From Octopus vulgaris (taxonomy: Eukaryota), in assembly GCA_951406725.2 (NCBI GenBank), contig OX597814.1:150970001-151034000 (forward strand): a DNA stretch of 64,000 bases, given 5' to 3'. Position numbers and translations under genes: made by a program. The notes beneath the pieces are model-generated. The model saw nothing but the letters and a program-made list of their open reading frames with translations, was not told the origin of the DNA and searched no databases. Below, piece after piece: positions 186-27,600 of this stretch (positions are counted from its first letter, which is position 1; every line of letters starts with the position of its first letter).

Positions 186-2519
186 CAATGTTAATGTTAT
201 AAAGTTCTATAAAGTGGTGATGAAATATGAGTAGATTCTCTTTGACATTAAAGAGAATGGAAAATTAATGATTTCGAGGTGTCTCTTGAAATAGTTTAAG
301 GGGAGTGATTACGTATATAGCTAGGTCGTTCTCTTTACAATCATGTTTCTGGGTTCGAACGGCAGCATGTTGGGTAAACCTCTTCTATCATAGATTGAGA
401 TTAGTCTGGCTCTTTCAAGTGAAATCTGAAAGAAGAAACTACAGGGAAGCCCGACGAAGGTATTGTTCCTATGGTAATTTTAATCCATCTAAAGGCGGCG
501 AGCTGGCAGAAACGTTAACACGCCGGGCGAAATGCTTAGCAGTATATAATTTCTTCTACCAGATTTCACTTGAAAGAGCCACACCAAACACAATCTCTGA
601 CAGAAGAGTTTTACCCAATAACAAAAATACAAGATGACAATCAATCAAATAGCTTATACCGCAAATGTGGCTTATATACACCCGTCTTCTTCAAAAGTTA
701 ACATCGTGTCAATAAGCCACACTCGTCCTCTGCGGAGGAAAGCATGTGTCAATAAGCAACACCCGACCTTAAAGGTTAATAGAAAATATTTGCGGTTTCA
801 GACTGCAAATTGAAATCATTGACATTAGGTGAATGCGATCCATATTTCCAAAGTTCTGAAACCCTCTAGCGAAACTAATGTAACGATTACAATTATGCTG
901 CTTTTGCTTAAGTCTAATAAATCCTAGCTGATCAAACCTTTGTTCAATGACACTCGCATTCCAGCCATGAAAATTTTTGTATTTTTAGAAGTGTACGACC
1001 CAGAACATATTAACTAATGTGTACTTTCTGCTTCTTAAAGCAATATGTGAGAGATTTGGCTGACATTTCTAACAAACTCAGCGACTGCACAGAGGCGCCA
1101 TTGTTGGCTGGTTTACAAGGATGATTTATTTTATAATGTATCTATATTGAAGAAGTAAATAATACAACACAAAACAAAATATATTTCTAGCTTTTATATT
1201 TATTTCGGATAAGATCAACAAATTTCGGTTAAATTCAAAGTAAAATAAACAATTGTATCTATCAGGTGATTTATTTTTATTTCCACATTCTTTCTTATTT
1301 TACTACTTTCATTCTGAATTCTTTACAACGAGATTCGGATATATCTTCAACACTGTTATTTCTCCCACCCGCACCCCCACTTTCTAAACAACTTTGTATT
1401 CCCCCTACTTTTCCATCAGCTTTTCGCTGATAGTTTATACAAATTATATACTTACTTTAAACAATTAACAACGAAAGCATGAAATCAAACCTAAGTGACA
1501 GAAAAATTCTGATATACAAACAGAAATGTAGAAACCTGGTTGAGGAAATAGAAACCTTTATTAACTGAGATATTTTTAGGTCAATCTTTAGACGTTTCTA
1601 TCCGAGCTGCCAGTAACTAAACATAGACAGAGACAACATGGTGGGAGTATTCTGTAAATGAACTTTTAGTTTTGTTGTTTGTCACGCAATACTAAAGACG
1701 CCAATCTCGTTTAACCAACTGCTACTACAAAAGTAAAAGTAATGGGTTCGATTTCGTTTTATTAACTTCCATTTTCTTTTAATTTCATTCTCCGAGTTTC
1801 GGAAACTACATTAAAATAAAACATTTTAGTATCTACTCTGTTGTTCGTACTTGGCATGTCAGTTATAAATTATATAATTTTGCTCACTAGGTCATCTATT
1901 AAGGGATCAATATTACCCAGTTACGAACAACAGGAATATTTCTATCAACAACAAGATATATAATTCTCAATACAAAGATACGCATCAACTGCTTCGATAG
2001 AAAATGTAGTCCATTAAATGATAAAGGGCTCAAGTGTTGAAAGGGACCACATCAAAACCAGTACTTCGTGAAATATTTACTCATTAATTCCATAGAGTAA
2101 ACTAAGCATTTTGACATGTAGATCTCATTGGCAAACTAACAAATTCAACATTATGATTAATAGCTTAAATTATATAGTATGATTATGCGTTAACGTGCAT
2201 TGCCTAAATTCTAAAATTTCTTGGGAATACAGTGGATAGTCTTCACACAATGGCTTGTGTGAAGACGTGAAGCGCCATCTTAAATATTACTTTAGAATAT
2301 TATAAGCGTTCCTACTCTGAACGAACAATTAAAGGTAAGAATACGATAGAAGTGACAGTTTATTTTATTAGTTACACTACGGCTACTATAATTCGCTGAA
2401 AACAGATGTACAGTGCAGCCAGTAATCTAGTATGACAAAAAATGTTTTGTAATTCGGATTACCTTTTCTCCGATCAGGGAATCAGCAATTGCCGAGTAAA
2501 CACTTGGTTCATTTATTTA

Positions 2520-2962
2520 TCTATACATATAAAGCTTGAGTTATCTGTGTGTGTGTGGCAGTTTTGTTAGCCTTCGGATAACTCTATCTCCTCCGATACC
2601 CTGCGGCGCAAGTTGACCAAAATTGAGTGTGATAAAATAAGGCTTGTTCTTCATTCCATAGTAGAAAAACTTTAAATCGGACCATGTTAAGACCAAAATG
2701 TATTTACATCAAAAAGGTGCTTTTCTTCTATGAAAATCCCTAATTTTTTCGATTTTTTGACTGCTGTGTCGCCATTTTTCGGTGTATTTCAACCATCAAA
2801 ATGTTCACTTAAAGAGAATAACAAGCTACATAATGCAAAATTTTTACTTTTCAAAAAAGATTTTGAAACTATGTCAAAACTTTATTAACGCGACATCAAA
2901 GTCTGCCGTTTTAAGCGCAACTAAAAAAAACAAACCCGAGCAACGCTGGGCTACACTGCTAG
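2520..2962 (+). mobile_element. Non-autonomous Helitron
   Basis: 5' A|TC (TCTATACATATAAAG); subterminal hairpin CCCGAGC-AAC-GCTGGG (2935-2950) followed by CTAG|T; no TSD; 3' end shared with 26302-26681. Confidence 0.75.
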
Positions 2963-3496
2963 TATAAACATAAACACTATCATCGAGTATTAGGTAGAGC
3001 ACGAACTATTCCTATTTAAAATACTTCGGTAGTAATTACGGACAAAGAATCGTGTGCTTGAGCGCTACACTAATGGGATGCAACGCTAACTTTTAGTGGT
3101 TTATGATGCTAAGAGAATACACTCGGTTTGACGTATAGTCAAAAATAAGGAAGATTTTATTCCTAATATTCTTATTTGAGATTTCAACATGTCTCTAAGC
3201 AACTCTCTTTAGCTTGATAGACTAAAATATTGAATAGAATTAACTTCAGACTCTAAGGATGATATGTTTCAGTTATGTGCTGCCATTTGAAAAAGCTGCA
3301 AATATCATGTATTAAAGGAAAGAATTATATATTTGGAGGACTAGATGAGTTTCATACTTTTAAACCTAACTTCTAAAATTTTCCAAACCTAGTACAGATT
3401 TTCACAATGCGTAAGGGACATGATAACATAAACTTAGATGTTAGAATATAAGAATTAGTTAATACAGATCTATATTTAAAGATGAAGAATTATGTA

Positions 3497-3820
3497 AATT
3501 ATTTACATTCGACGGATATTTTTCCTCATCTTGTTTGTTGTTAACACAACGTTTGGGCTGATATACCCTCCAGCCTTCAGTAGGTGTCTTGGGAAAATTT
3601 CTCATTCCTATGGTATTTTTCGATGTTGTTGTTGTTGTTGTTGTTCGGGTCACGGGCATATGGCGTAGTGGTTAAGAGCGCGGGCCACTAACCCCAAGAT
3701 TCCTAGTTCGATTCCAAGCAGTGACCTGAATAATAATAATAACATCGAAAATACATTAGGAATGTATGTGTTAACAACGAACAAGATGAGGACAAATATC
3801 CGTCAAATGTAAATAATGTA
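3497..3820. mobile_element. tRNA-headed SINE with an inverted partial copy of its own body and 3' part
   Basis: Head from 3654 with A box TGGCGTAGTGG and B box GTTCGATTCC; 3497-3653 is the reverse complement of the body and tail (ACAAGATGAGG..AAATATCCGTC..ATGTAAATAAT occurs on both strands). Confidence 0.75.
3543..3588 (-). ncRNA. Decayed minimal type I hammerhead motif in the SINE body
   Basis: Minus strand: GACAC-CTACTGA-A-GGCTG-loop-CAGCC-CAAA-CG-TT-GTGTT; stems I and II pair, core differs from CUGANGA/GAAA. Confidence 0.5.
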
Positions 3821-5179
3821 AAAAAGAATTAGTTAATATGAAATTCTGTATTGATAAAATTTGCTCTGATATTTATTTTAAAATTAAATTTCTCTGGGGT
3901 CAGCTGTAAAAGAAAAATCTTCAAGTTTTCCAATAAATTTACGACGATGATTTATTGCAGGAAAATATTCTTCGATTATTTATATTTCTTAGTTTAAATA
4001 ATGTTTATATTTTTGAAAAATAAAGCAGAAAAAATTTACTACAAAGTATTTTGATTACTTTCTCACGAAAGACATGCCAAAAGACATGTATAAAATTTAA
4101 GCATGTCTTGCAACCAACAGATCATTGAGACAAGAAAATTTAAGGAAAATACTATCATTAGACTGATATAATTATGGGAGTTAGTCCTCGGTGGTAATGA
4201 GTTTATTATATGTAGATATTACAGTTAGAAGTAGTTGGAATGAATCTTAGGTGCTGTGAAATTATTAGAGCCTTTATTCATAATCTCATTGTAAACTTGA
4301 ACAAGCTTAAAGTGTTCCTGACAATGAAATTATTGATGAGAAATGTCTAATACAAGATTAAATATATGTGATGTGCAACAGAGCGTATAGCTTCGGTAAT
4401 TGGTAAGAGTTGAGTTCATTTAGACCTGATATCTGTAAAAAGATGAAACATTCAATCAATATGATTCATGAAATTTTCAATAAATGTAATTAGCCTCGTA
4501 TGATGACATTTGCTCAATTATTAATTTCATAAATAGTTGCCGGGATCAACAAAAGCGAACTCTTAGATCAATGTGCCATTACAGAGGAGCTGCTGTGAAA
4601 AGTATACTTTGACAGCAACTACAGCTGCCACATATATTTAATAAGGGTAGCTACCGACGTAAAACTGGTTCTGATTTGCGGACAAAATAATGTGCGTTAA
4701 TTAGTCCGTCCCACTATACCTCTATTCAAATTCTACTGGGATTAACTTTAGCTTTCATACTTCTGTTGATCGATTTAATCGATTATTCCCTTTCGCAACA
4801 TTTGTGTCCTGCATTTATGTTAATCATTGTTATCGTGGAAATATTAACATCTTTCTGATTGATGTAGTTTCCATCTCGATGAACAGCAATTTATCTTGGG
4901 TTGTAAAAGACCTTTAGAACACGCAGGAACTCATCAACAGCTTAGTATTCTTTTATAAATACATTCATTCTTTGTTTATATAAGAAATTATATGTTCCGT
5001 CGTGATCTGAACCAACAGTACACTTACTTTAGATTCCAAATAAAAGCTATTTCAATCGGGTTACATTCAAAACTACTTTAGGGAAAGACAAAATCATCAC
5101 ATATTCCCAAATCGGCATTTTATATATAGAGAGAGAAAGAGGGGAGAGGGTGAGAAAGCGAGAGAGAGAGAAAGAGAGA

Positions 5180-5528
5180 GGCGCAATAGCCCACTGGTTA
5201 GAGAAGCGGTCTCACGGTCGTAGGATCGCGGTTTCGATTACCAGACCGGGCGTTGTGAGTGTTTATTGAGCGAAAACACCTAAAGCTCTACGAGGCTCCG
5301 GCAGGGGGTGGTAAAGATCCCTTATGTACACTTTCACCACACCTCTTTCTCAATCTTTCTTCCTGTTTCTGTTGTACCTGTATTTCAAAGGCCGGCCTTG
5401 TCACACTGTATGTGACGTTGAATCTCACCGAGTACTCAACCACTTGCACATTAATTTCACGAGCAGGCTCTTCCGTTGATCGGATCAACTGGAACCCTTA
5501 TCGTCGTAACCGACGAAGTACCACGACG
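5180..5528 (+). mobile_element. tRNA-derived SINE family C
   Basis: A/B-box-like head (..CTGGTTAG..GTTTCGATT), same head as 57496; followed by (CA)n(TA)n. Confidence 0.75.
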
Positions 5529-8250: not shown

Positions 8251-9306
8251 AGAAGATAAACAATTCTTTTTAGTTTCTTCGTTATTTTACATTTAAATTT
8301 CTATATATACATATATATGAGAGAGCACGAGAGAAAATATTATTTTCTACTCTAGGCACAAGGCCCAAAATTTTGAGAGAGGGGGGCCAGTCGATTAGCC
8401 CGACCTCAGTACGTAACTAGTACTTAATTTATCGAATGAAATTAACAATACAGAGACAACACAAATGTAGCGATGATCAGGCCACGCTCCGACCCCACAA
8501 GCCCCGATCTATCACTGGTACCTTTTTTTGTTCTTCTTTTATAGCTCATTCACACGGTTCCTTGCACGCACAACACTCGTGCAACTCCCTTTTTGGACAT
8601 ACTCTCCGACAGACACCTCTTCTCCAGCCATTTATTCAAAACACTATATCTCTCTATTAAAATATTTTGTTGAATGTTAATACGGAAAAAACGTTATTAT
8701 TGTTGTTGCTCATTTCTTATTTGATATGTTGATGTAGTTGTTGTGACCTCCTTCATATCACCGTTTTCATAATACATATTTCACAAAAGCGTAGCACCTG
8801 CTCATAACACTATAGTGCATTCCTTAAGGAAAACATCATTTTCCTCTGTATTTCGCCATAGTTTATAATTTACTTTGTTTTTCAATATGACATGAAGACT
8901 ATTATTTTATTGGATATTTACAATAGGAAATGTAACTCTAATACAGAAATAATGAACAAAATGAAAATCCTTTTGAAATATTTTCATTTTCTAGTTTTTA
9001 TATTTTTCCGTGATCAACTCACCTCTGCACATTTAACTGCCATTTGCAAGTGTTCAAGATGTGCGTATGTGTATGCTTGTATCTAGAAATGAATAATAAT
9101 GTGTGTGTGTGAGAGAGAGAAGAAAGAAAGTGAAATCCTAATGCTTTGATACTTGAAACATCATTTGCATGTAATATATTTAAAGCAAATTAACTCGAAA
9201 AATTTCATTTCCCAATGAACTTTCTACATAATTTCAGAAACACACACACAGAGACACACTTAATTAGGTGTGTGTGTGTGTGTGTGTGCGTGTGTTTATG
9301 AATGAA

Positions 9307-9349
<43 letters not shown>

Positions 9350-9379
9350 TTGAGTTGTGGGGTATCGCACGAGTGGGAT

Positions 9380-10811
9380 TATATAAGAAAAAAGGTTTGA
9401 AAATGCAATTTAAACGATGTTTATTTACTTAACCGGTTTCACTCTTTGGTAAAAGATTGTCAAAAGTAACATTTAAGGAAACATTGAATAATATGGGTTC
9501 AAAAAAAGTTTTTTACATAATTGTCACATTGAATATTATGCATTCAAAAAAGTTTTTTACATAATTGTCACATTGGATATTATGAATTCAAAAATGTTTT
9601 TTTATACATAATTGTCACATTACATGTATAAATATAGTGTTTGGTAACAGAGAAGTTCAATAGTGTGATGAGAATATTTGGGAAAATTTGGCAGAAAAGG
9701 ATAAAACAAATATATTATTGGGAATTGGTTGCGTTAATTATTGGTTGTCGCAAATTGTCACATTACATGTATATATATATATACAGTCTTTGGTATATAT
9801 ATACAGCCTTTTGACAGCAAAAATTAAAATGGATTTTTTATACATCTCAGAATATTTTAAGTTTAAGGCGAGAATATGTTTTTACTGACCTGTCGGTATT
9901 AGCAGAAACGCTGAACTGAGAGAAAAGAAGAAGTAGCCAATGTGGTGTATACTTCCCCTTTATGCATGAATGATTTTGGGGTTATCAGGAGGTTAGTATG
10001 CGGGTGTGAATAGATGTGTCCATGCCCGCTGGTAAGATAGCGTCTGTTTGTCACACACATATATATATACACACACACACACATACAACAACAACACACA
10101 CACACACACACACAGAACACACACCCACACACAACGCACCCACATATATCACATATACACACAGCACACAAATATAACATGTATCTATATATAATATACA
10201 CAGATATATAACACACATACACACACAACACACACACACAACACACACACACACACACAACACACGCACACATACATACATAATATAAATATCACACAAA
10301 TACACATAGCATATATATACACATACAATACACACATACAGCATGTAAATAATACACACACAATATATGCATGCAATATACATACGCAATACATACATAT
10401 AATATATATATATATATAGACAATGCATATACATATATACATATATACATATAAATAGTGTTTACATACACATACATAGATATACCACATATACACACAA
10501 TATACATACATACAATGCATACACATACACGTACGCATACATATAATATATATATACACACACACACACATAACATACATACACAATGCATACATATATA
10601 TACACGCAATGCATATACATGTATTCATGCATATATAGCACACCTACAATATACATATATACAATGCACACATACACACACATATATACACTTAATTGTA
10701 CACATACATATACAATACACATACATACAATATAGATATACACAATGCGCATGCAAATAATGTACATGTTTATACACACATAAACATGCAAATAAATATA
10801 CACACACACAC

Positions 10812-10848
<37 letters not shown>

Positions 10849-11050
10849 CATACATACATACATACATACATGCACATACATATATTTTTTCACACACATA
10901 CACACACATATATATATGTAAAAAAAAAATCACCACCCCCCCCCACACAAATTACAAACCTATAGCGTACACACTCAAATATATCTCTACATACCGCACA
11001 CACAAACAAAGTACTAACATATACACACATACCATGCATATACACACACA

Positions 11051-11085
<35 letters not shown>

Positions 11086-11305
11086 AAAACAAATACACAT
11101 GTAAATACATACACACGTACACAATGCTCACACACACACACATACACACACACCCGCACACAGTGCACACATACACACACATATATACACACGTGCACAC
11201 ACACACACAACGCGCGCGCACACACACATATACACACACACGCACATAGTGCACACACACACACACACATATATATATACACCCGCGCACACACACACAC
11301 AACGT

Positions 11306-11343
<38 letters not shown>

Positions 11344-11661
11344 CACTCACACACATACATCACCTACATATATATAATGCATGCGTGTGCATGCCACGTA
11401 TGTGTGCGGTCAATGCCCGCTAGTGTGTCCTATGCGTGCCGATGCGCGCATGTGCCCGCCCGCACGATATGCTGTGAGCGTGCGCGCGTCCCTGTGTGCT
11501 TGCTCTGGATGTGTTTCCAGGGGGTATGTTAGAGTATGTTTAGTTGTGGTCTGTATTTTTGAATAAGATTACTTTCCTTATTTATTCGTGTTTGGTCTGT
11601 GGTGTTGTCCGAGCATTGGTATAGTGGGAAGACTAAGAATTTGGGGGACTTATTGTGTGCA
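9380..11661 (-). repeat. Left inverted arm (last ~44 codons of the ORF, 3' region and pseudo-LTR in antisense)
   Basis: Reverse complement of 13779-15864; mirrored ORFs 9688+/15354- (identical) and 11381+/13874- (near-identical); minus ORF 11529 ends with the same AHNKSPK...PQLNIL as the main ORF. Confidence 0.95.
9425..9469 (-). ncRNA. Minimal type I hammerhead motif (U3-A8 variant), left-arm copy
   Basis: TTACTT-TTGACAA-TCTTTT-ACCA-AAGAGT-GAAA-CCGG-TT-AAGTAA; first stem II pair is a U-U mismatch in this copy. Confidence 0.7.
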
Positions 11662-13911
11662 AAAATAGTGAATCTTTCTAACCTAAACCTGTCGACACCA
11701 CAAATAAAAATCCTTTCAAGAGGACTAAAATTCACCCCAACTCCGCAATACCCTAACCTGAGGGAAATACAGGATGACATCTCGCACTTTTGCAGAAAAT
11801 TACGCCTCACAGAGGAATTTTTTGACAGGAAAACTAATAACAACGACGAATCAATGGTCTGTAACAAAAGCAACTATAATCCCACAAAAGGCAAAAACAA
11901 AACCTTAGACAAATTTTGCGATTACATCTCCAACTTCCCTTATGGTGAACTCCCACAACCTAAACTCAAACCCAACACCAGTAAAAGAGAATGGGAAATC
12001 ATCCATACGCTACGAGACAATCATGACGTCACAATAAAGGAAGCTGATAAGGGTAGTACGGTCGTTGTTATGAATACTGAGCAATATAAAAACTCTGTAT
12101 CTCTCCTTTTAGAGGATACCACATACTATGAAAGAGTAGTCGACTACCAGCAATCCAAAACAATGACCAATCTGAAGGCACTCATTTACCAACACCGGAA
12201 TGACTTGACAGCAAAGGAATGCGACTACATTACTAAATTTAATTGCAAAACCAGCACACTCTATGGGCTTCCAAAAATACACAAGAGTCAAATTATCACA
12301 GAAGCTTGCAAAAAGTCCACTTCAACCTGCATCACTATACCACATCCCACTGATCTCAAACTGAGACCAATAGTGGCAGGCCCAAGTTGTGAAACACACA
12401 GACTTAGCAACTTTATAGATATCATCTTAAAGCCAATACTGAAACACATTCCAAGTATTGTAAGAGATGACCTAGACCTATTAAACCATCTCCCCAAACA
12501 TGCCGATAAAGACACCTTAATCGTTTCTTTTGATGTTATTAATCTTTACACCACAATCCCACATGAATATGGACTGGAAGCCATTAAATTCTGGCTGGAT
12601 AAATATCCCAATGAGATCCCGGAAAGAATTAAAAAAGAATTCATAATTGAGGGCCTCAAATTTATTCTGCAAAACAACTTCATGTATTTCCACAACAACA
12701 CTTACAGACAGGTCTCAGGAACTGCAATGGGTACGAAAGTTGTACCTACCTATGCAAACCTGGTGATGGCCTACCTGGAATCACATATCTATGAAAAATC
12801 CAAATATAAGTACGGCCAGTCTTTCCACAAATACCTGTTGGAGAACTGGAAACGCTACTTAGATGATTGCCTCATCCTATGGTCCCACACACTCGACCAA
12901 CTTATAGACTTCAAAAACCTTATCAGCAGTGTAAATAACAACATTCAATTCACAATGGAATATAGTCAGGACCAACTCCCTTTTCTTGACATCCTAATCA
13001 TTAAAAAAGGCGTCAACATTGAAACTGACATCCATTACAAACCCACTGACTCTAAACAATACCTTCTATTCACCTCCAATCACCCAAAACACACAAAGAC
13101 AAATATCCCCTTCAACCTAGCGAGAAGAATCTGCACTATTGTCTCAAATGACACAACACGAAATAGAAGACTCCGGGAACTAAGGGCAATTCTTCTCGAA
13201 AGACATTACCCGGCATCACTAGTAGACAACGGAATAGAACGGGCCAAATCAATCAACATTCAAGACTTTCGAAAACCCAAACACATCCACAGTACAGTAA
13301 ATAGCCTCCCCTATCTCTCAACACACAACCCAAGGAATGCAGAAGCTTACACTATTATATACAACAACATTCCACAACTAAATCAAGACCCACGCCTGAA
13401 AAAAATACTGGCAGCTCATAAAATAATAAAAAGTAAGAGACAACCTAAATCCCTAAAAAACCTCCTCACCAACGCAAAATTACACAACACAAACCCACCG
13501 CCCACCATCAAAAAATGTGGTCGCCCCAACTGCAAGACCTGCATCCACCTCATTGAGGGATCGTCGTACAAGTTCCACTCGGGACACACATTCATCATAA
13601 AAAATAATTTCACGTGCGCTTCAAAAAATTTACTCTACGTCATAAGGTGTGAAGGATGCCACGAAGACTACATAGGGCAAACGAGCCTTACCCTCAGAGA
13701 AAGAATGACAGTTCACCGACAACAACTGAGGGACCCCTCCACAAGACAGATACCACTAAGTGGACACTTAGACCTTTGTGCACACAATAAGTCCCCCAAA
13801 TTCTTAGTCTTCCCACTATACCAATGCTCGGACAACACCACAGACCAAACACGAATAAATAAGGAAAGTAATCTTATTCAAAAATACAGACCACAACTAA
13901 ACATACTCTAA
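11662..13911 (+). CDS. PLE polyprotein: reverse transcriptase + Cys-rich linker + GIY-YIG endonuclease (native 5' end missing)
   Basis: IVNLS..LSRGLKFTPTP N-terminal motif; LYGLPKIHK, LRPIV, SFDVINLYTTIP, GTAMGT, RYLDD, LPFLD, YKPT, SNHP; CGRPNCKTC linker; LLYVIRCEGCHEDYIGQT, R..H, ESNLI, PQLN; no stops. The first 21 aa of ORF 11599 derive from the inverted arm. Confidence 0.95.
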   Translation, partial: KIVNLSNLNLSTPQIKILSRGLKFTPTPQYPNLREIQDDISHFCRKLRLTEEFFDRKTNNNDESMVCNKSNYNPTKGKNKTLDKFCDYISNFPYGELPQPKLKPNTSKREWEIIHTLRDNHDVTIKEADKGSTVVVMNTEQYKNSVSLLLEDTTYYERVVDYQQSKTMTNLKALIYQHRNDLTAKECDYITKFNCKTSTLYGLPKIHKSQIITEACKKSTSTCITIPHPTDLKLRPIVAGPSCETHRLSNFIDIILKPILKHIPSIVRDDLDLLNHLPKHADKDTLIVSFDVINLYTTIPHEYGLEAIKFWLDKYPNEIPERIKKEFIIEGLKFILQNNFMYFHNNTYRQVSGTAMGTKVVPTYANLVMAYLESHIYEKSKYKYGQSFHKYLLENWKRYLDDCLILWSHTLDQLIDFKNLISSVNNNIQFTMEYSQDQLPFLDILIIKKGVNIETDIHYKPTDSKQYLLFTSNHPKHTKTNIPFNLARRICTIVSNDTTRNRRLRELRAILLERHYPASLVDNGIERAKSINIQDFRKPKHIHSTVNSLPYLSTHNPRNAEAYTIIYNNIPQLNQDPRLKKILAAHKIIKSKRQPKSLKNLLTNAKLHNTNPPPTIKKCGRPNCKTCIHLIEGSSYKFHSGHTFIIKNNFTCASKNLLYVIRCEGCHEDYIGQTSLTLRERMTVHRQQLRDPSTRQIPLSGHLDLCAHNKSPKFLVFPLYQCSDNTTDQTRINKESNLIQKYRPQLNIL

Positions 13912-14346
13912 CATACCCCTTGGAAACACATCCAGAGCAAGCACACAGGGACGCGCGCACGCTCACAGCATATAGTGCGGGCGGGCACATGCGCGCATCA
14001 GCACGCATAGGACACACTAGCGGGCATTGACCGCACACATACGTGGCATGCACACGCATGCATTATATATATGTAGGTGATGTATGTGTGTGAGTGTTAT
14101 ATGTAGGTGATGTATGAGTGTGTGTGTGTGTGTGTGTGTGCACGTTGTGTGTGTGTGTGCGCGGGTGTATATATATATATGTGTGTGTGTGTGCACTATG
14201 TGCGTGTGTGTGTATATGTGTGTGTACGCGCGCGTTGTGTGTGTGTGTGTGGGGGGGTGTGTGTGTGTGAATTTTTTTTACATATATATATGTGTGTGTA
14301 TGTGTGTGAAAAAATATATGTATGTGCATGTATGTATGTATGTGTG

Positions 14347-14379
<33 letters not shown>

Positions 14380-15614
14380 CTGTGTGTGTATGTGTGTGTG
14401 TGTATATTTATTTGCATGTTTATGTGTGTATAAACATGTACATTATTTGCATGCGCATTGTGTATATGTATATTGTATGTATGTGTATTGTATATGTATG
14501 TGTACAATTAAGTGTATATATGTGTGTGTATGTGTGCATTGTATATATGTATATTGTAGGTGTGCTATATATGCATGAATACATGTATATGCATTGCGTG
14601 TATATATATGTATGCATTGTGTATGTATGTTATGTGTGTGTGTGTGTATATATATATTATATGTATGCGTACGTGTATGTGTATGCATTGTATGTATGTA
14701 TATTGTGTGTATATGTGGTATATCTATGTATGTGTATGTAAACACTATTTATATGTATATATGTATATATGTATATGCATTGTCTATATATATATATATT
14801 ATATGTATGTATTGCGTATGTATATTGCATGCATATATTGTGTATGTGTATTATTTACATGCTGTATGTGTGTATTGTATGTGTATATATATGCTAGGTG
14901 TATTTGTGTGATATTTATATTATGTATGTATGTGTGCGTGTGTTGTGTGTATGTGTGTGTGTTGTGTGTATGTGTGTTATATATCTGTGTATATTATATA
15001 TAGATACATGTTATATTTGTGTGCTGTGTGTATATGTGATATATGTGGGTGCGTTGTGTGTGGGTGTGTGTGTTCTGTGTGTGTGTGTGTGTGTTGTTTG
15101 TATGTGGTGTGTGTTTGTATACTATGTGTGTGTGTGTGTGTGTGTGTTGTTGTTGTTGTGTGTGTGTGTGTGTATATATATATGTGTGTGACAAACAGAC
15201 GCTATCTGACCAGCGGGCATGGACACATCTATTCACACCCGCATACTAACCTCCTGATAACCCCAAAATCATTCATGCATAAAGGGGAAGTATACACCAC
15301 ATTGGCTACTTCTTCTTTTCTCTCAGTTCAGCGTTTCTGCTAATACCGACAGGTCAGTAAAAACATATTCTCGCCTTAAACTTAAAATATTCTGAGATGT
15401 ATAAAAAATCCATTTTAATTTTTGCTGTCAAAAGGCTGTATATATATACCAAAGACTGTATATATATATATACATGTAATGTGACAATTTGCGACAACCA
15501 ATAATTAACGCAACCAATTCCCAATAATATATTTGTTTTATCCTTTTCTGCCAAATTTTCCCAAATATTCTCATCACACTATTGAACTTCTCTGTTACCA
15601 AACACTATATTTAT

Positions 15615-15760
15615 ACATGTAATGTGACAATTATGTATAAAAAAACATTTTTGAATTCATAATATCCAATGTGACAATTATGTAAAAAACTTTTTTGAAT
15701 GCATAATATTCAATGTGACAATTATGTAAAAAAACTTTTTTTGAACCCATATTATTCAAT
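15615..15760 (+). repeat. Three ~45-bp tandem units just upstream of the hammerhead (mirror copy ~9482-9625)
   Basis: AATGTGACAATTATGTAAAAAA..TTTTGAA..CATAATATTC repeated three times. Confidence 0.8.
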
Positions 15761-15773
15761 GTTTCCTTAAATG

Positions 15774-15818
15774 TTACTTTTGACAAACTTTTACCAAAGA
15801 GTGAAACCGGTTAAGTAA
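15774..15818 (+). ncRNA. Minimal type I hammerhead ribozyme motif (U3-A8 variant), right-arm copy
   Basis: Stem I TTACTT/AAGTAA perfect; core TTGACAA; stem II ACTTTT-ACCA-AAGAGT (one G-U); GAAA; palindromic ACCGGT stem III; predicted GUU cleavage site at 15812; AATAAA at 15818-15823. Confidence 0.8.
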
Positions 15819-15855
15819 ATAAACATCGTTTAAATTGCATTTTCAAACCTTTTTT

Positions 15856-15891
<36 letters not shown>

Positions 15892-16634
15892 GTAATATAT
15901 ATTTAATATATGTCTGTGTGTATATATATATATATGTGCGTACGTATAACGGTTCTTAAGGTGGCATAGAACATCCTATATACAAATGTTCTATCTCAGC
16001 GCTCGCCTTTCAATGAATAAGCAGACTCAGGACACACAACCATAAACGTATATGATGGGATAGGGGATAAGTATTTGACTCAGCTCAGCATTAAAGTTTC
16101 ACTGGTGAAACCTTCACTTTATCAGATTTTAAAGACACTGTGAAAAAAATTTAAAAGAAATTTTAAATGATTTCATGATGAGAGTATTTAGACCTTCAAG
16201 TTTCGTGGGATTTTTTTGCTATCATACGTGGTGTAGCAGCCCAGATGTTAGCGTCACCTAGTGGGTATTTTTACGAGATAAAATTTTCAGCGACAGCAGG
16301 TTTTTACCCTGCATGTTACACGTTGTAGAATAGAAAATAAGTAGCTGTCAGTTATTTGTCTCTCAGGAGAGAGAGAGGGAGAGAGAGAGAAGAGCCTTAT
16401 AGGCTTGTTATCAAATAATTATGATGAATATTTTTATATTGGGAACTAAAATTTAATGCAACAAATCGTCAGAGGTAGAAGTATTTCCGACTTTAAAACT
16501 GGAACCAGTCAGTCAACAAGTAGCGACTTTTAGAAGATTGGACTGAATGAAGTTTTAGTGAGGTAGGTATGACAAAATATATTTCTTTCAACGGTTACAT
16601 TTATAATGGATAATTCGTAATGGATAATCCTTTC

Positions 16635-17445
16635 CTAGTCCCACCATACACACAACAACCTTTTACTCGGATGAAGATCTTGTTTCACGCGCGGTGTCGC
16701 TTGTGTACCGGGGCTAAGGCATTCCTTATGCTGCTTCATATTGATGTAAAGGCACCATTTTTCGTCGCCAGTAACGATTCGGTAAAGAAGTCGTTGCTTG
16801 TGTCCATGAGTTGAGCGGTGACGAACAAGCAAACCAGCGGAGATTATGGCTCGTTGATTTTTTGTTGTTGTCACTTAAAGCATGCAAACCCATGCTCCAT
16901 ACTTCTGAACCTTTCCCATCGAGTGAAGATGCTTTTCTATAGCAGTGTGGGAGCATTCCATTTTCTCTGCCAGTTCCCTTGTCATTTGAGGAGAATTTTC
17001 GTGCAAAGGTTGATTTAATCGCTCTTCATCGAACGGCCAGAACGAGGTGCGTCTTTGAGGTCAAAATTTCCATGTTTAAACTTGGCATACCAATCACGAG
17101 CGGTTCTTTCAGCTATGACACCCTCTCCATACACAGCGCAAATGTCACGAGCAGCTTTTGCGGCCTTAGAACCTTGATTAAAAGTAAAAAGAAGAAGGTG
17201 TCGAATATGCTCGTTTTTCTTATCTTAACATTCCATTTTAATGATCTGAAAAGGAACAAAAATTAACTAAAATTAACTAGAAAAAAGACAAAATAGATTC
17301 CAAAATGATTCAAAAATAGAATTCTCGAAAAAAAAATAGATTCCAAAATGATTCAAAAATAGAATTCTCGAAAAAAAATAGATTCCAAAACTTAAAAACG
17401 CAAAAAATTCTAAAATTTCAAAAACGGTGGAAACTTAATTGCCAT
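16635..17445 (-). mobile_element. Mariner DNA transposon remnant (5' half, transposase pseudogene)
   Basis: From ATG at 17236: MEC*DKKNEHIRHLLLF..AARDICAVYGEG..W..KFKHGNFDLKDAPRSGR; then RIVTGDEKW and HPSKRLLCVWWD; TIR-like AAAACGGTGGAAACTTAATTGCCA at ~17421-17445. Confidence 0.88.
17290..17390. repeat. ~43-bp tandem repeat in the mariner 5' UTR
   Basis: AAATAGATTCCAAAATGATTCAAAAATAGAATTCTCGAAAAA about 2.4 copies. Confidence 0.85.
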
Positions 17446-19104: not shown

Positions 19105-19327
19105 GTTTACTCATTTACTCTTTTACTTGTTTCAGTCATTTGACTGCGGCCATGCTGGAGAACCACCTTTAGTCAACCAAATCGACCCCAGAGTTTATTC
19201 TTTGTAAGACTAGTACTTATTCTATCGGTGTCTTTTGCCGAACCACTAAGCTACGGGGGACGTAAACACACCAGCATCGGTTGTCAAGTGATGTTGAGGG
19301 GATAAACACAGACACACAAACATATAC

Positions 19328-19362
<35 letters not shown>

Positions 19363-19408
19363 CGATGGGCTCCTTCCAGTTTCCGTCCGCCAAATCCACT
19401 TACAAGGC
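19105..19408 (-). mobile_element. SINE family A (5' truncated)
   Basis: Reverse complement of the family A body and tail. Confidence 0.85.
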
Positions 19409-19411
19409 CTA

Positions 19412-19979
19412 AATCTTCCATATAGATATGTATTCGGCTAAAACGATCGTTAAAACCAACTTATTAGCGAGAAAGCCTACATTATTATGTATTTAGTGAT
19501 AGTGGAGAGAAAATTCTCACGATATAGACCATCCCCCATGGTTTGTAATAATTTCTCTGCAATTCTAATAAAATGCATAATCCGACAGGGTCATTTATCT
19601 GAATCAGATGAACTCAAAGTTAACCCAAAATTACTACATCTAGATTTTGAAATCCTGTAATTATCAATGATAGATATAAGTGTGTTCCTGGATATTAAAA
19701 ACATAGTCTGTCTGTAGATGTGATATATTTTTGGCTTGATATACTTTTGATGGTTTGTGTATAACATTCTGAAATAATTTAAATTAAAATTAATATTAAT
19801 AAATTATGAATAATAATCACGTATTTTTAGAATTAGTGGCTTTATTCTTAATAAAGCGGCCGTTGAAAGCAATTTGAATATGATCTATCTGTGAAATGTA
19901 TGCTTTTTCGCTAATTTACTCTAAGAATACGTTGGTTTTAACGATCGTTTTAGCCGTATACATATCAATATGGAAGATT
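19412..19979. mobile_element. MITE-like element with ~70-85 bp imperfect terminal inverted repeats
   Basis: AATCTTCCATAT..CGGCTAAAACGATCGTTAAAACCAAC vs GTTGGTTTTAACGATCGTTTTAGCCG..ATATGGAAGATT. Confidence 0.65.
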
Positions 19980-20057
19980 CTTTCCGTCTGGATATACTAC
20001 AATATTATAACGTATCAGAATTTAACGATGCATTATTATTTGAGCTTTTTATAAATA

Positions 20058-20093
<36 letters not shown>

Positions 20094-20096
<3 letters not shown>

Positions 20097-20503
20097 AGTG
20101 GCTGTGTTGGTAAGTATCTTGCTTCCCAACCACATGGTTCCGGGTTCAGTCCCACTGCATGGCACCTTGGGCAAGTGTCTTCTACTATAGCCTCGGGCCG
20201 ACCAAATCCTTATGAGTTGATTTGGTAGACGGAAACTGAAAGAAGCCCGTCGTATATATGCATATATTTATGTGTGTGTGTGTGTGTGAGGTCGTGTGTT
20301 TGTGTCTGTCCCCACAACATCGCTTGACAACCGATGCTGGTGTGCTTACGTCCCCATAACCTAGCGGTTCGGCAAGAGACACCGATAGAATAAGTACTAG
20401 GCTTACAAAGAATAAGTCCTGGGGCCGATTTTCTCGACTAAAGGCGGTGTTCCAGCATGGTCACAGTCAAATGACTGAAAGAAGTAAAAGAGTAAAGAGT
20501 AAA

Positions 20504-20504
<1 letters not shown>
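20094..20504 (+). mobile_element. SINE family A, full length (tRNA-like head, internal microsatellite, LINE-like 3' end)
   Basis: TGGCTGTG(T)TGG / GGTTCAGTCCC boxes; CACCTTGGGCAAG; tail GGCGGTG..CCAGCATGG..CAGTCAAATGACTGAAA plus (AGTAAAG)n. Confidence 0.9.
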
Positions 20505-20537
<33 letters not shown>

Positions 20538-20905
20538 CACGTGGCGTCAGATTCTACTCAGAGTTGGCAGATGGTGACCTTTATGTAGTAAAACAAAAAA
20601 TAAGTGAAATACAGGCGCACGACTGAGTTGCAGGCAGATTTACTTCTGCCTATATAGCACGTAGAGAAAACAGTTTTGTAGGATTGTACGCAGCACGTGT
20701 AGTACAACAGTACAATGATTGAAAAACCCGGGCGAATTATGCCTACCTAATCTAGAAATGAAAATAGGCATATATTGCATTTTATGCATAGTATTAATAG
20801 TAACCTTCATAAATTTTTGAATTAGATGCATATTTTGCCATAAAAGGAAAATGTTGCTATTGATTATTTTATTCAAGATACGCACTGCCTTACCTTACCT
20901 ACCAA

Positions 20906-20960
<55 letters not shown>

Positions 20961-20963
<3 letters not shown>

Positions 20964-21442
20964 TGCTTTATTTTGAGATTGCTAATAATAAAATACAGAC
21001 TGGAGTTATAGGGCTCCAAGTGAGCTATATTCCGCTTATTAATCTGAATGGAGGCAATGCAAGCGGAAACTAGAGAAGCATACTTAAAAACCACACTCAA
21101 AATCAAATATATACACGTATTCTTCTATATTTATAAAACAGATATGAATCTTCCAAAGATATAAATATAAAACTACATATAAATAGAAAATATCCATATG
21201 ATATATAAAACAGGGAATTTTAGATTTAAAAGTTATAATACATTCGTGTAATACATTCGTGTCTTTTATATATCATCACGATATTTTCTATTTCTATTTA
21301 TTTTTATTTTTATGTACTTGGAATTATTATATCCGTTTTATAAATGTAGAAGAATATATGTATATATTTGATTTTGAGTGTGGTTATTAATCATGTTCCT
21401 CTAGTTTCCGCTTGCATTGCCTCCATTCAGATTATTAAGCGG
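20961..21442. repeat. Diverged fold-back insertion between (TA)n tracts
   Basis: 21032-~21210 is an imperfect reverse complement of ~21262-21442; extra sequence 20961-21031 on one side only. Confidence 0.8.
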
Positions 21443-21450
21443 TATGCAAA

Positions 21451-21467
21451 CATATATATATATATAT

Positions 21468-21530
<63 letters not shown>

Positions 21531-21557
21531 TATATACATATATATATACATATATAC

Positions 21558-21590
<33 letters not shown>

Positions 21591-21628
21591 CATATATACA
21601 TATATATATACATATATATATATACACA

Positions 21629-21690
<62 letters not shown>

Positions 21691-21943
21691 TATACATATA
21701 TATATATACATATATATACATATATACATATATATATACATATATATATGTATATACATATACATATATATACATATATACATATATATATACATATATA
21801 TATGTATATACATATATATATGTATATACATATACATATATATTTATACATATATATATACATATATATATGTATATACATATACATATATATTTATACA
21901 TATATATATACATATACATATATATATACATATATATACATAA

Positions 21944-22020
<77 letters not shown>

Positions 22021-22031
22021 ATATACATATA

Positions 22032-22095
<64 letters not shown>

Positions 22096-22257
22096 TTAAA
22101 TTAGAGACAAACACTATTATGCAAATCAATGCTTTGCATAATAATGGTTGTCTCTAATTTAATATAATATAATATTTTACTATAAAATTGGATTCAATCC
22201 TAAATCTGATTTTTCCCTGTAAGTTTGGATTTATTCCTTAATTTTTATTATTATTAT

Positions 22258-22290
<33 letters not shown>

Positions 22291-22300
22291 CATATATGTA

Positions 22301-22332
<32 letters not shown>

Positions 22333-22339
22333 CATATAC

Positions 22340-22376
<37 letters not shown>

Positions 22377-22465
22377 CATATACACATATATATATACATA
22401 TACATATATATACATATATATATATATACATATACATATATATACATATACATATATATACATAT
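21451..22465. repeat. Long (TA)n/(TACA)n microsatellite, interrupted at 22092-22255
   Basis: Direct reading. Confidence 0.95.
22092..22255. repeat. Short fold-back insertion in (TA)n
   Basis: 34-bp arms 22092-22125 / 22133-22166 plus a one-sided ~90 bp extension. Confidence 0.8.
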
Positions 22466-23967
22466 ACTTTGATACTTTGATACTTTGATAGGTTTCGGCC
22501 ATTATTGGCCCAGACCATGTCTAACTTAATAGCACCACCTGGTGAAGTCTTTCAAGTCAGAATTTGGGCACTATGGCCCACTCAAGTAGAGAGTTATTGT
22601 TTACAGAGACATATCCAGGTGTAGGGGGTTTATCCGGGATTTCTTGAAGGAATCTGTCCAAAGACTTCTTGAACCCTATAGGGTCAGTTTCTGTTTTAAT
22701 GTGTTTTGGTGTAATGTTAAAGAGAGCGGGGCCAATTGAGGTGAAATAATTGTGCCGTATTGTTGTTATGAGATGAGAGTGCGATTTTTGTTTTGGGCGG
22801 ATGGCACGGGGCCCAAGCCTTGGATGTACCTTAAAGGTGATGCCAACATCATTTGGGCAATGCTGATGGAATATTTTCCACATCATGCAGATGATGTAGC
22901 GCTCACGACGACGTTGGAGAGAATAGAGTTTTAGCTTTTCTAGCCGACCCCAATAGTCGAGGCCTGTCATGCCATCTTTCTTTTTTGTGATTGCCCTTTG
23001 AGGTGCTTCAACTTTTATGATACCTTGTATTGTGTGGGGAGACCACAGTGGACAACAGTATTCAAGGTGGGGTCGGGCAAAAGTGGAGAAGAGAAGGATA
23101 ATGGTGTGGATATCTCTCGACTGGAAAGTTCTGAGAATCCAGGAACACATTCTGCGGGCCATGTCAACTTTGGTGTTTATATGAGTGGCCCAGCTTACGC
23201 TGTTGTCCACAATTACTCCCAAGTCTCTGATGTTGTTGGACGCCGCGAGAGTTTCACCTGAAGGAAGGGAGTATGGGAGTTTCAGGGCATCCTCTTTTCC
23301 AAAGTGGATTAGCTCAAATTTATCCTCGTTCAGCAGCATATTGTTTTTTTCTGCCCATTGGATAACAGCCAGTAGATCTGACTGAAGGCATGTCCGGTCA
23401 CTCGCCTCATTTATGACCTTCTGTAGCTTGGAGTCATGTGCAAAGATTTTTATGTTGCTGTGCTTGATGATGTCATTAATGTCATTAATGTAAATGATGA
23501 AAAGAAGTGGGCCCAGCACAGTGCCTTGCGGAACGCCACTACTGACTTTGGCTGGGCTTGATTTTACCCCTTCAACTACAACATGTTGAGATCTGTCTGT
23601 CAGGAAACACTTAATCCATTTCAGTAACTTTCCAGAGACACCAATGTTGGATAGTTTTTTCAATAGGATCTTGTGATCGACCCTGTCGAAGGCCTTACTG
23701 AAATCAAGGTAGATGACATCGGTGTTGGAGCCCTCTCCCAAAGCTCTCAAAATGTCCTCAAAGTGATGCAGGAGCTGCGTTAGGCAGTCCCTTCCATTAC
23801 GGAACCCATGTTGGTTGGAGATCAGCCGTCTGTTGCTTTCCAGAAATTGGGTTATTCGAGATCTCACCACCCTCTCAAATACCTTGATGATATGAGAGGT
23901 GAGTGAAATCGGACGGTAATTCACTGCAAGGGACTTGTTTCCCTTTTTGAAAACTGGGACAACAGTT
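22466..23967 (-). mobile_element. 5'-truncated CR1-group LINE in (TA)n
   Basis: RT ORF, short 3' UTR, (TATCAAAG)3 tail; (TA)n on both flanks. Confidence 0.92.
22557..23965 (-). pseudogene. LINE ORF2 RT domain and C-terminus (5' truncated; catalytic FADD altered to FAHD)
   Basis: [60 protein letters not shown]. Confidence 0.9.
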
Positions 23968-23986
23968 TATATATACATATATATAC

Positions 23987-24043
<57 letters not shown>

Positions 24044-24063
24044 CATATATATACATATACATG

Positions 24064-24109
<46 letters not shown>

Positions 24110-24198
24110 TATACATATACATGTATATGCATATATATATATATATATACATATATATATACATATATATATACATATATATATATACATATATACAC

Positions 24199-24293
<95 letters not shown>

Positions 24294-24296
<3 letters not shown>

Positions 24297-24637
24297 TTGT
24301 TATATTTCGGAATGGTCATATTGCCAGTTTAGCCAATAAAAACACACGCACTATATATTTGGTGTTATTTTGCTTCAGTGATATTTATTTTTTACATTAA
24401 TCTTAATCTTATTTCTCCCAAAGTTCTTTCGTCACACTCCTGTGACCGCATCAGTGGTCCTTTGTTTTCTTCTCACTTATTTGTGTCTCTCCTTACTAAC
24501 CAAGCAAAATAACACCAAATATATAGTGCGTGTGTTTTTATTGGCTAAACTGGCAATATGACCATTCCGAAATATAACAATATCTGTTTCAACACACGAC
24601 TTCACATAAAAAATCTTGCACAACAAATATTTAAACG
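24294..24637 (-). mobile_element. Non-autonomous fold-back element (probable PLE terminus) in (TA)n
   Basis: Perfect 82-bp inverted repeat 24294-24375 / 24502-24583, hammerhead-like motif in the loop, one-sided extension 24584-24637. Confidence 0.75.
24418..24457 (-). ncRNA. Hammerhead-like motif (variant core)
   Basis: CCA-CTGATGC-G-GTCACA-GGAG-TGTGAC-GAAA-GAAC-TT-TGG; perfect 6-bp stem II, 3-bp stem I, A9 replaced by C. Confidence 0.55.
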
Positions 24638-24685
24638 TATATACATATATATATACATATGACTATGTATATATATACATATGAC

Positions 24686-26007: not shown

Positions 26008-26024
26008 TACATATATATTTATAC

Positions 26025-26092
<68 letters not shown>

Positions 26093-26217
26093 ATATATAC
26101 ATATATATACATATATATATATATATACATATATATACATATATGTATATATACATATATGTATATATACATATATATACATATATGTATATATACATAT
26201 ATGTATATATACATATT

Positions 26218-26257
<40 letters not shown>

Positions 26258-26301
26258 CATATATATATATATTTATATATACATATATATATATATACCT
26301 A

Positions 26302-26681
26302 CTAGCAGTATCGCCCGGCGTTGCTCGGGTTTGTAAGGGAAATAACTATAAAGCATATATAGAGAGTTATAGCCAAAAAATAGCAAAAAAATGGGGAAAA
26401 AATTATGGTAAATTTGTTTTGTGAGTTAAAAAGGTCGAGTTGCGTTCCCTAGACCATCTGTGGTTTGTGTTTCTGATTGTCGACCCCATGACGAATTTAT
26501 CGATCTTTTTCAGAACTGGGGGAACTTTTCAAAATTTTTCCTGCGTTAGTTTTGAATTATGACATTGGGCTATGTGTGTGTCAAGTTTCATCAGAATCGG
26601 TTGAAAGCCGTGGTCAGGGTGAGGGTACAACCTAACAGACACACAGACACGCACACAGACAAACTGCCGTTTATATAGAGA
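26302..26681 (-). mobile_element. Non-autonomous Helitron
   Basis: Minus strand starts A|TCTCTATATAAA and ends CCCGAGCAACGCCGGG-CGATACTG-CTAG|T. Confidence 0.78.
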
Positions 26682-26767
26682 TATATATATATACATATTA
26701 TATAATATATACATATATTTATATATACATATATATATATATATATATACATATATTTATATACATA

Positions 26768-26825
<58 letters not shown>

Positions 26826-26832
26826 TATATAC

Positions 26833-27392: not shown

Positions 27393-27407
27393 AAAAAATA
27401 TATATAT

Positions 27408-27565: not shown

Positions 27566-27600
<35 letters not shown>

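Follow-up and report, generated by a model that had tools for sequence, protein, structure and literature searches.

Organization of the element

The window analysed here is a stretch of 64,000 nt from Octopus vulgaris (contig OX597814.1, positions 150,970,001 to 151,034,000). It contains a Penelope-like element (PLE) whose truncated reverse transcriptase-endonuclease (RT-EN) frame abuts, head to head, an inverted copy of the element's 3' end. As described in the first-pass annotation, two inverted arms are present, and arm alignment places them at 9346–11661 (2316 nt) and 13779–15863 (2085 nt), with a non-repeated spacer of 2.1 kb between them. The left arm (9380–11661, minus strand, without its terminal tail) is an inverted, 5'-truncated copy that covers the last 43 codons (about 44 had been claimed), the stop codon and the 3' UTR. 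The right arm (plus strand) consists of the ORF end of the main copy and its 1952-nt 3' UTR, and an internal TATA at its end merges with the target. The sharp junction reported at 11661/11662 is confirmed by the alignment. At 11660–11661 the inverted arm and the family sense sequence share 2 nt of microhomology, as the arm ends at 11661 and contigs of the same family align from 11660.

Over 986 nt, the unique parts of the arms are 99.5% identical, with 5 substitutions and one gap of a single base, which agrees with the few differences claimed for them. The microsatellite-like blocks of the two arms differ by 15 substitutions and 12 gaps (344 gap bases), bringing the total to 20 substitutions and 13 gaps (345 nt). 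Flanking (TA)n tracts, also noted before, are found at both ends by TRF: the left one spans 9309–9345 (18.5 units, 100%), and the right one, read from the sequence as well, spans 15864–15886 and degenerates to about 15935. No target-site duplication is distinguishable within the TA repeats at either end. PLEs are known to be biased to (TA)n targets (PMC8557442).

Two kinds of features had escaped the first reading. The first is a 34-nt tail at 9346–9379 (minus strand), found by arm alignment and present on the left arm only; one-sided tails of 30–40 nt have been published for PLEs (PMC8557442, PMC11167929). The second is a pair of predicted minimal hammerhead motifs with a U3-A8 core. One lies at 9425–9469 (minus strand, core 9463), with stem II flanked by U...U, and the other at 15774–15818 (plus strand), with a palindromic stem III and predicted cleavage after 15812. 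The descriptor, which was written after the motif had been seen, matched twice when the two strands of the window were scanned, once in each arm, and in none of 2000 shuffles. The stem III letters of the right motif are identical in loci L002, L003 and L004. Rfam returned no hammerhead in 9300–15950; its 71 matches were all below the gathering score and were miRNA/snoRNA look-alikes of repeats. Single-strand folding of the hammerhead regions was no better than that of shuffles (z −0.3 to −0.8), as expected, because such motifs are thought to act as dimers. A search of a viral collection gave neither a hammerhead match nor a relative.

The (TA)n target, the hammerhead near each arm end, the inverted truncated copy and the tail are all published PLE features. 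The arm length had been called unusual, which stands; the layout is not unusual. Inverted, 5'-truncated copies placed at the 5' end and bearing a tail on one side only are reported to be common (PMC8557442), and this layout is also described as frequent in D. virilis (PMC2377424). The head-to-head layout is textbook for PLEs, and this is a new element of an already described kind.

The 3' UTR is about ten times as long as that of relatives, and the distance from stop to hammerhead is 1869 nt here versus 84–448 nt in 9 relatives. The great length of the arms follows from this 3' UTR, which has taken in about 1.1–1.3 kb of TG/TA repeats between the stop codon and the hammerhead. The resulting microsatellite-like blocks, delimited by TRF and arm alignment, span 10047–11342 in the left arm (1296 nt, minus strand) and 14098–15195 in the main copy (1098 nt, plus strand). 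A largely microsatellite-like 3' region had indeed been proposed, and the repeat-like block makes up 56% of it, with a purine/pyrimidine alternation of 0.88 versus 0.53 for the window. TRF also detects a 44-nt tandem repeat in 3.1 copies at 9481–9621 (minus strand), whose mirror copy lies at 15621–15762. A study of penaeid shrimp (PMC7878876) likewise reports microsatellites carried within recently moved Penelope copies, which are >98% identical and whose internal repeats travel along and change length, though in a different host. The octopus family, whose 3' UTR includes about 1.1 kb of microsatellite, may help to spread such repeats.

The RT-EN frame and its classification

The frame is open for 782 codons from stop to stop, and 749 of these (about 750 had been claimed) lie past the junction, at 11662–13911 on the plus strand. 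The catalytic motifs are retained, as had been stated. The RT core (12262–12990; Pfam RVT_1 and motif reading) includes RT1 at 12262, RT3 at 12529, RT4 at 12718, YLDD at 12856 and RT7 at 12982. It is followed by a C-x4-C-xx-C linker of the Neptune/Nematis type at 13516–13542, with the cysteines invariant in 59 of the 59 rows of alignment A1, and by a GIY-YIG endonuclease with CCHH at 13615–13908 (Pfam PF01541, E 1.9e-5). The residues C652, C663, C666, Y670, G672, R681, H685 and H702 are invariant in A1. There are 675 homologs of the frame; its AlphaFold model has a pLDDT of 91.6, and telomerase RTs are all 8 of the top 8 Foldseek matches.

A telomerase-like RT fused to GIY-YIG, the CCHH residues, an inverted pseudo-LTR (pLTR) derived from a 5'-truncated copy, the 34-nt tail and a hammerhead motif per arm together place the element among the endonuclease-bearing PLEs. 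The earlier assignment to the Neptune type is supported, as the element has a CX2-5CxxC linker before a C-terminal endonuclease, a long spacer after the linker and a (TA)n insertion site. The spacer from the linker to the next Cys has 24 residues here, compared by eye with 25–27 in four Neptune-type rows and 7 in three Nematis rows of the Fig. S2 text (PMC8557442). RT3 and RT4 also look closest, by eye, to two Neptune rows. Other assignments were considered and rejected. Nematis needs a spacer of about 7 residues. The Hydra clade has neither CCHH nor GxKF and carries DKT and CxCX5C, whereas CCHH, GLKF, DKG and CX4CxxC are found here. Naiad and Chlamys carry an N-terminal endonuclease.

Among named relatives, Neptune-1_Ac, DrerioNep1 and Neptune1_Nv share the C-terminal GIY-YIG with CCHH, the Cys linker, (TA)n, the hammerhead, the tail and the inverted truncated copy (PMC8557442). 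The octopus element differs from them in its 1.95-kb 3' UTR with a 1.1-kb microsatellite block, and in having neither a direct upstream pLTR nor a start region. Penelope of D. virilis likewise has large terminal repeats in inverted orientation, whose size varies, and a 34-bp repeat, and in its active form a partial tandem between inverted repeats supplies the promoter (PMC2377424); unlike the element here, it lacks the Cys linker (PMC8557442). Poseidon of Anolis carolinensis (PAc), the source of the two-start-site model, shares the tail, the hammerhead and the AT-rich target (PMC11167929), but it belongs to a different clade and has a single ORF starting at the hammerhead. Penelope-13_HM of the Hydra clade also carries a 5'-truncated inverted copy (966 nt) at its 5' end, together with (TA)n and hammerheads with a U...U-flanked stem II (File S1/S2, PMC8557442).

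Coding status and formation of the copy

The element had been called coding-intact, and this description has to be withdrawn. The first ATG, at codon 65, lies beyond G21-L-K-F24 and further columns that A1 shows to be conserved, and the 5' sequence of the family is absent. The family contigs extend 5' of the junction, and in each of the 4 runs their loose end lies before 11660. In this flank, of which 30 letters are visible, an in-frame ATG precedes the conserved I-x-N-L-S motif by ten codons; the copy lacks this ATG. Both a sense pLTR promoter and a translation start upstream of the RT are missing. The pLTR is present in inverted form only, the direct pLTR being absent, and both pLTR ends point outwards. 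Furthermore, there are three private replacements: at residue 361, where 58 of 58 homologs have A, at residue 422 (conserved in 93%) and at residue 536 (conserved in 97%). The family contigs keep the conserved residue at all three sites, and for 361 and 422 they do so at full depth in each of the 4 runs. The copy is likely unable to make its own protein.

A recent insertion, as first suggested, is likely, since the copy differs by 0.2–1.2% from the dominant family contigs. These contigs show low divergence and a 3'-biased depth. We consider it probable, at roughly 0.8, that the locus holds a 5'-truncated copy of a multicopy Neptune-type PLE, inserted in (TA)n and joined head to head to its own inverted 3' end, probably through two target-primed reverse transcriptions of opposite direction, and that it is likely unable to make its own protein. 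The second, opposed round of reverse transcription that had been proposed is the best-fitting origin. In such a scheme, the TA tract would be nicked on both strands by a family RT-EN protein. One of the cDNAs would start at the proximal RT start site and run 4.2 kb to just before I-x-N-L-S; the other would start 34 nt further out, which accounts for the tail, and run 2.3 kb. The two cDNAs would then be joined via the 2-nt microhomology, leaving outward-facing pLTR ends and a frame with neither sense promoter nor start, and the copy would now be decaying neutrally. The basis for these steps is a single in vitro study, made with another clade, in which both strands were cut and extended and the tail equals the spacing of two RT start sites (PMC11167929).

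The choice between two primings and one fold-back for inverted pLTRs is listed as an open step (PMC8557442). A single copy is in itself of little importance. As a clean example of the PLE mechanism, with arms that have different 3' ends and diagnostic alleles, the locus offers a way to ask which of the two applies.

Upstream frame and translation start in relatives

In 10 of 13 close relatives (those with at least 32% identity and the 5' flank present), a T6[A/G] heptamer lies in the −1 phase under an upstream frame, without an in-frame ATG. The background rate of the heptamer is 2 in 5071 codons, and the three relatives lacking it are L013, L044 and L054. A quick IQ-TREE run of 84 unnamed rows groups the window element with heptamer-bearing relatives (SH-aLRT 99). 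Pseudoknot scanning 3' of the slippery sites, run without controls, gave candidates in 5 of 10 loci. An ORF1 with a frameshift is mentioned for some PLE type in a Fig. 1 legend (PMC8557442). The upstream frame and its −1 slippery site are absent from the copy here, and the upstream proteins of relatives found no match in the window (best E 0.91). None of the 161 upstream-frame homologs ends like the 30-letter 5' flank of the family, none could be linked to the octopus family and none is named from an octopus. The upstream protein matched no Pfam family above the cut-off and gave no usable match in the ESM Atlas. For annotation and for in vitro reconstitution of the PLE cycle, the upstream frame and conserved −1 slippery site of close relatives would be of consequence.

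A tentative alternative, which deserves real weight, accepts the same dead copy but has the family RT-EN initiate from an ATG of its own, with re-initiation past an upstream stop as one possibility, rather than by −1 frameshifting; the copy would then miss only about 9 codons and the promoter. The in-frame ATG in the family loose end points this way, as do the nearest homologs P0002–P0006, which open with Met 9–11 residues before the motif. A GNN second codon also follows 29 of 49 upstream starts versus a 35% background, the sequences being related and not independent. However, 71 of 120 homologs have no called start upstream of the motif, and an in-frame ATG occurs in 0 of the 10 heptamer-bearing loci. 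The ATG-G context can also come from a Trp codon read in the overlapping frame; upstream proteins often have Trp close to their end (29 of 92).

Alternative origins and roles of the arms

A fold-back or self-priming origin, in which the first cDNA served as template for the left arm and the right arm later lost its tail via deletion between TA repeats, is unlikely, though worth weighing. Self-priming has been proposed for inverted PLE junctions (PMC3846280), an 8-nt palindrome (13777–13784) adjoins the arm boundary and the terminal TATA of the right arm would permit such a deletion. Nevertheless, the junction itself is no palindrome, and one-sided tails are usual and are accounted for by two RT start sites (PMC11167929, PMC8557442). 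At the inner-arm differences, the left arm matches the family contigs where the right arm departs from them, at 3 of 3 sites (two-sided p 0.25, not significant).

The arms had also been put forward as a source of double-stranded RNA, and a role involving ADAR or siRNA is possible. Transcription across both arms, with the product folding into a hairpin whose 2-kb stem is edited by ADAR or diced into family-silencing small RNAs, appears improbable. The near-identity of the unique arm parts would suit such a stem, and in A. vaga Penelopes bidirectional pLTR promoters have been suggested and antisense small RNAs seen (PMC3846280). Against this, both pLTR ends face outwards, and Pfam found no host exon in the 143 of 166 open frames scanned, a search that short exons would escape. 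Most T>C and A>G differences are, besides, common to DNA runs. No RNA run carrying the element was found among the 24 runs listed. Two element-sense A>G differences, confined to run X4, share a contig with a private difference of another type and were not taken as editing. A bacterial promoter scan found nothing, such models being irrelevant to the host. Mu killer of maize is likewise an inverted duplication of a transposon end able to form a hairpin RNA. It is, however, derived from a DNA transposon, its host promoter is known and its silencing has been demonstrated, whereas the hairpin here is a candidate only.

A joint reading would place the parent in a wide, little-described two-gene Neptune sub-clade, with a helical ORF1 of no Pfam family and a −1 frameshift to RT-EN. 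The RT would stall at the foot of the frameshift structure and give headless head-to-head copies. With the microsatellite-swollen 3' UTR, such copies would turn into loci with 2-kb hairpins, which would spread microsatellites and supply substrate both to ADAR and to small-RNA silencing of the family they belong to. We regard this combination as a long shot.

That the copy serves as an active source, with translation beginning at a non-AUG or downstream codon of a read-through RNA, is very improbable. The long open frame with intact catalytic residues and the confident model would allow it, but the lack of an ATG before codon 65 and of a sense pLTR, and the three private changes at conserved columns, speak against it, and a read-through RNA would include the hairpin. 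Least credible of all is an assembly or library fold-back artefact: none of the contigs listed bridges the junction, yet the window has no N, the arms differ at the many positions given above and are separated by a non-repeated spacer, only one of them carries the tail, and the layout is the one published for PLEs (PMC8557442).

Structure and identity of the element

Alignment of the reverse complement of 9300-11700 to 13740-15900 places the arms at 9346-11661 and 13779-15863, with a sharp junction of arm and frame at 11661/11662. The fold-back, the junction and the (TA)n on both flanks, all proposed in the first-pass annotation, are thus confirmed, as is the small number of substitutions in the unique parts of the arms (5, plus one single-base gap, in 986 nt). 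In the repeat-like blocks (10047-11342, left; 14098-15195, right), the differences comprise 15 substitutions, plus 12 gaps that together span 344 nt. It was overlooked that the left arm runs 34 nt (9346-9379) past the right arm's end. The window has no N bases, and its self-BLAST gave no second copy of the element.

This inverted-arm layout is textbook for Penelope-like elements (PLEs). In D. virilis, the inverted repeats are large and variable in size, with a 34-bp repeat (PMC2377424, excerpt); the same kind of inverted repeats and short repeat is reported in rotifers (PMC3846280, excerpt), and both traits are listed as known peculiarities elsewhere (PMC8969392, excerpt). The inverted arrangement also occurs among the fetched PLE loci, such as L063 and L087. 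The arms of L087 (521-4862) measure 786 nt; those of L063 (4805-5015/6848-7061) measure 211 nt, and in L063, too, the arm abuts the beginning of the RT frame.

The frame at 11563-13911 is open for 782 codons, of which 749 lie beyond the junction, and the RT motifs, the C-x4-C-xx-C linker and the GIY-YIG/CCHH residues are all present, as expected of the annotated RT-endonuclease (RT-EN) frame of about 750 codons. Among 675 homologs of the protein, the best is 72% identical over its length; a predicted Octopus bimaculoides protein of 419 aa is 82% identical over 55%, which points to a probable octopus-like host. Its predicted structure is confident (pLDDT 91.6), and the top eight structural matches of the model are telomerase RTs. 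The Neptune assignment by the Cys linker is also supported: the spacer after it has 24 residues, fitting the 25-27 of Neptune, unlike the 7 of Nematis, in a by-eye reading of part of the supplementary alignment of PMC8557442. The Hydra and Naiad clades were excluded by motifs and domain order. In a quick tree of 84 rows without named references (the window, the 66 of 98 loci past a coverage filter and 17 of 120 homologs), the window falls within a 27-row group (SH-aLRT 99). The copy is a headless PLE of an already known sort.

The missing 5' end

The description 'coding-intact' has to be withdrawn, as the family's 5' piece is absent and the first ATG of the copy is codon 65. Region 11380-13778 was compared with assembled contigs of 4 runs out of the 24 listed. 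In all four, the contigs part from the window shortly before 11660, and the loose end is the same each time (median length 72-134 nt, with 30 letters displayed). This end holds an in-frame ATG ten codons ahead of the conserved I-x-N-L-S motif. The contig alignment reaches into the inverted arm by 2 nt, which amounts to a 2-nt microhomology.

Among 13 relatives with at least 32% identity and enough 5' flank, 10 (L001-L004, L007-L011, L081) carry T6[A/G] in the -1 phase at a distance of 57-201 nt before the RT frame, with an upstream frame in the other phase over the heptamer and no in-frame ATG; L013, L044 and L054 lack this arrangement. As background, the heptamer occurs at 2 of 5071 codons. 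The four long upstream proteins, 393-474 aa in length, share homology with each other; the upstream proteins have 819 relatives, and 59 of the 92 long ones end soon past F-L/F-F, the translation of the heptamer. No Pfam family scored above cut-off for them, their model predicts long helices and a disordered tail (pLDDT 68), and nothing resembling them was found in the window. By analogy, the copy's own family would also possess an upstream frame. A real rival is that the family starts RT-EN at its own start codon: the Met with which the nearest homologs start lies 9-11 residues ahead of I-x-N-L-S, and none of the 161 upstream-frame homologs ends like the family's loose end. Under either reading, upstream frame or own ATG, the copy is without the needed start piece.

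The literature searched, which did not extend to two key papers (2017, 2006), gave no description of Neptune elements with a T6[A/G] frameshift. An ORF1 with frameshift and pseudoknot is given for one PLE type in the Fig. 1 legend of PMC8557442, esterase ORFs are mentioned for Neptune-like elements (PMC5408684), and two ORFs are present in a Neptune of killifish (bioRxiv 2025.05.22.655539, excerpt). The available parts of bioRxiv 2026.07.22.740005, PMC6431247, PMC3124438 and PMC7998251 hold nothing bearing on the question. One locus, L027 (2569-4500), has an upstream frame of 643 codons with the same heptamer and a G-D-S motif, SGNH esterase-like by eye. Eighteen PLE loci (L081-L098) lie within bacterial MAGs and are likely mis-binned host DNA.

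Hammerhead motifs and long arms

A minimal hammerhead motif, missed in the first pass, lies in each arm, 83 nt from the arm end. With both strands of the window scanned, the descriptor matched only these two places, and it matched none of 2000 shuffled versions of the outer 668 nt, a generous control since the descriptor was composed after the motif was seen; Rfam reported no hammerhead. The U3-A8 core, which has been published as a variant (PMC4209133, excerpt), is found again in L011 and L085, and L002-L004 share the stem III letters. The left-arm stem II, flanked by U...U, resembles those of L004, L006, L011 and L083, as well as Hydra-clade rows in File S2 of PMC8557442 (excerpt). Directly upstream of the hammerhead, a 44-nt unit is repeated 3.1 times (9481-9621 and 15621-15762), part of it again 143 nt away.

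The arm length is indeed unusual and follows from a long, largely microsatellite-like 3' region: 1869 nt separate the stop from the hammerhead, compared with 84-448 nt in nine relatives, and alternation is 0.88 against 0.44-0.64 in these relatives, whose 3' regions are not repeat-like. Sitting within the element, with the ORF on one side and the hammerhead on the other, and shared by both arms, the repeat-like block was part of the template. Penelope copies with internal SSRs are described in shrimp (PMC7878876, excerpt).

Formation and age

In an anole element, cleavage and extension take place on both DNA strands, and the tail equals the distance separating two RT start sites (PMC11167929, excerpt). 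Here, reverse transcription was probably primed twice within the TA tract, in opposite directions and once from each start site, and the two cDNAs were joined through microhomology, which would explain the one-sided tail. The left arm agrees with the family contigs at 3/3 inner-arm differences, which is not significant but would fit separate templates. It is also possible that a fold-back formed and lost one tail afterwards (cf. PMC3846280, excerpt). An assembly artefact is unlikely because the arms differ, a spacer lies between them and the tail is present; no contig among those listed, with 1225 further pieces beyond the listing, bridges the junction. Since promoters sit near the pseudo-LTR end in Penelope and Chlamys-3 (PMC8557442), both of the copy's would fire outwards.

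The proposed recent insertion is likely, the dominant family contigs being only 0.2-1.2% from the copy (e.g. 6/1442, 5/547 and 4/999 nt). Their depth, which does not equal copy number, exceeds that of the rare variant contigs by a factor of tens to hundreds and rises toward the 3' end (1359 to 5260 in run X7; 293 to 850 in X8), the pattern to be expected if the family is multicopy and truncates at the 5' end. Twenty listed runs, of three coded organisms, contain 67-83% of the words. Three replacements relative to the contigs (residues 361, 422 and 536) fall in columns 93-100% conserved among 58 homologs, which suggests decay after insertion, though the numbers are small. O. vulgaris is reported to have 336 recently active Penelope-like insertions (PMC13282606, excerpt); young copies are therefore nothing unusual in hosts of this kind.

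Hairpin RNA and neighbourhood

A read-through RNA, if made, would pair over 2 kb. At 11458-11500, one contig of run X4 has two element-sense A>G differences missing from three other runs, next to a private non-A>G difference; allele or editing are both possible.

No host exon turned up in a scan covering 143 of the window's 166 open frames, which detected nothing beyond a mariner relic and fragments of LINEs. The broken mariner transposase (HTH_48, Transposase_1; 16638-17224, minus strand) lies 0.8 kb right of the element. The LINE fragments are at 22560-23966 (minus), 24635-25918 (plus), 26636-27496 (plus) and 55645-56079 (minus), three of the four with RVT_1 matches; those at 22.5-27.5 kb are also bordered by long TA-rich tracts, such as the 1-kb tract at 21452-22466. 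An inverted pair of 800 nt (30893-31712/41484-42278, 84% identity) contains (TAACCC)-like arrays, and two dispersed SINE-like repeats of 300-450 nt occur in multiple copies, some inverted, at 19106-37787 and 49557-59736.
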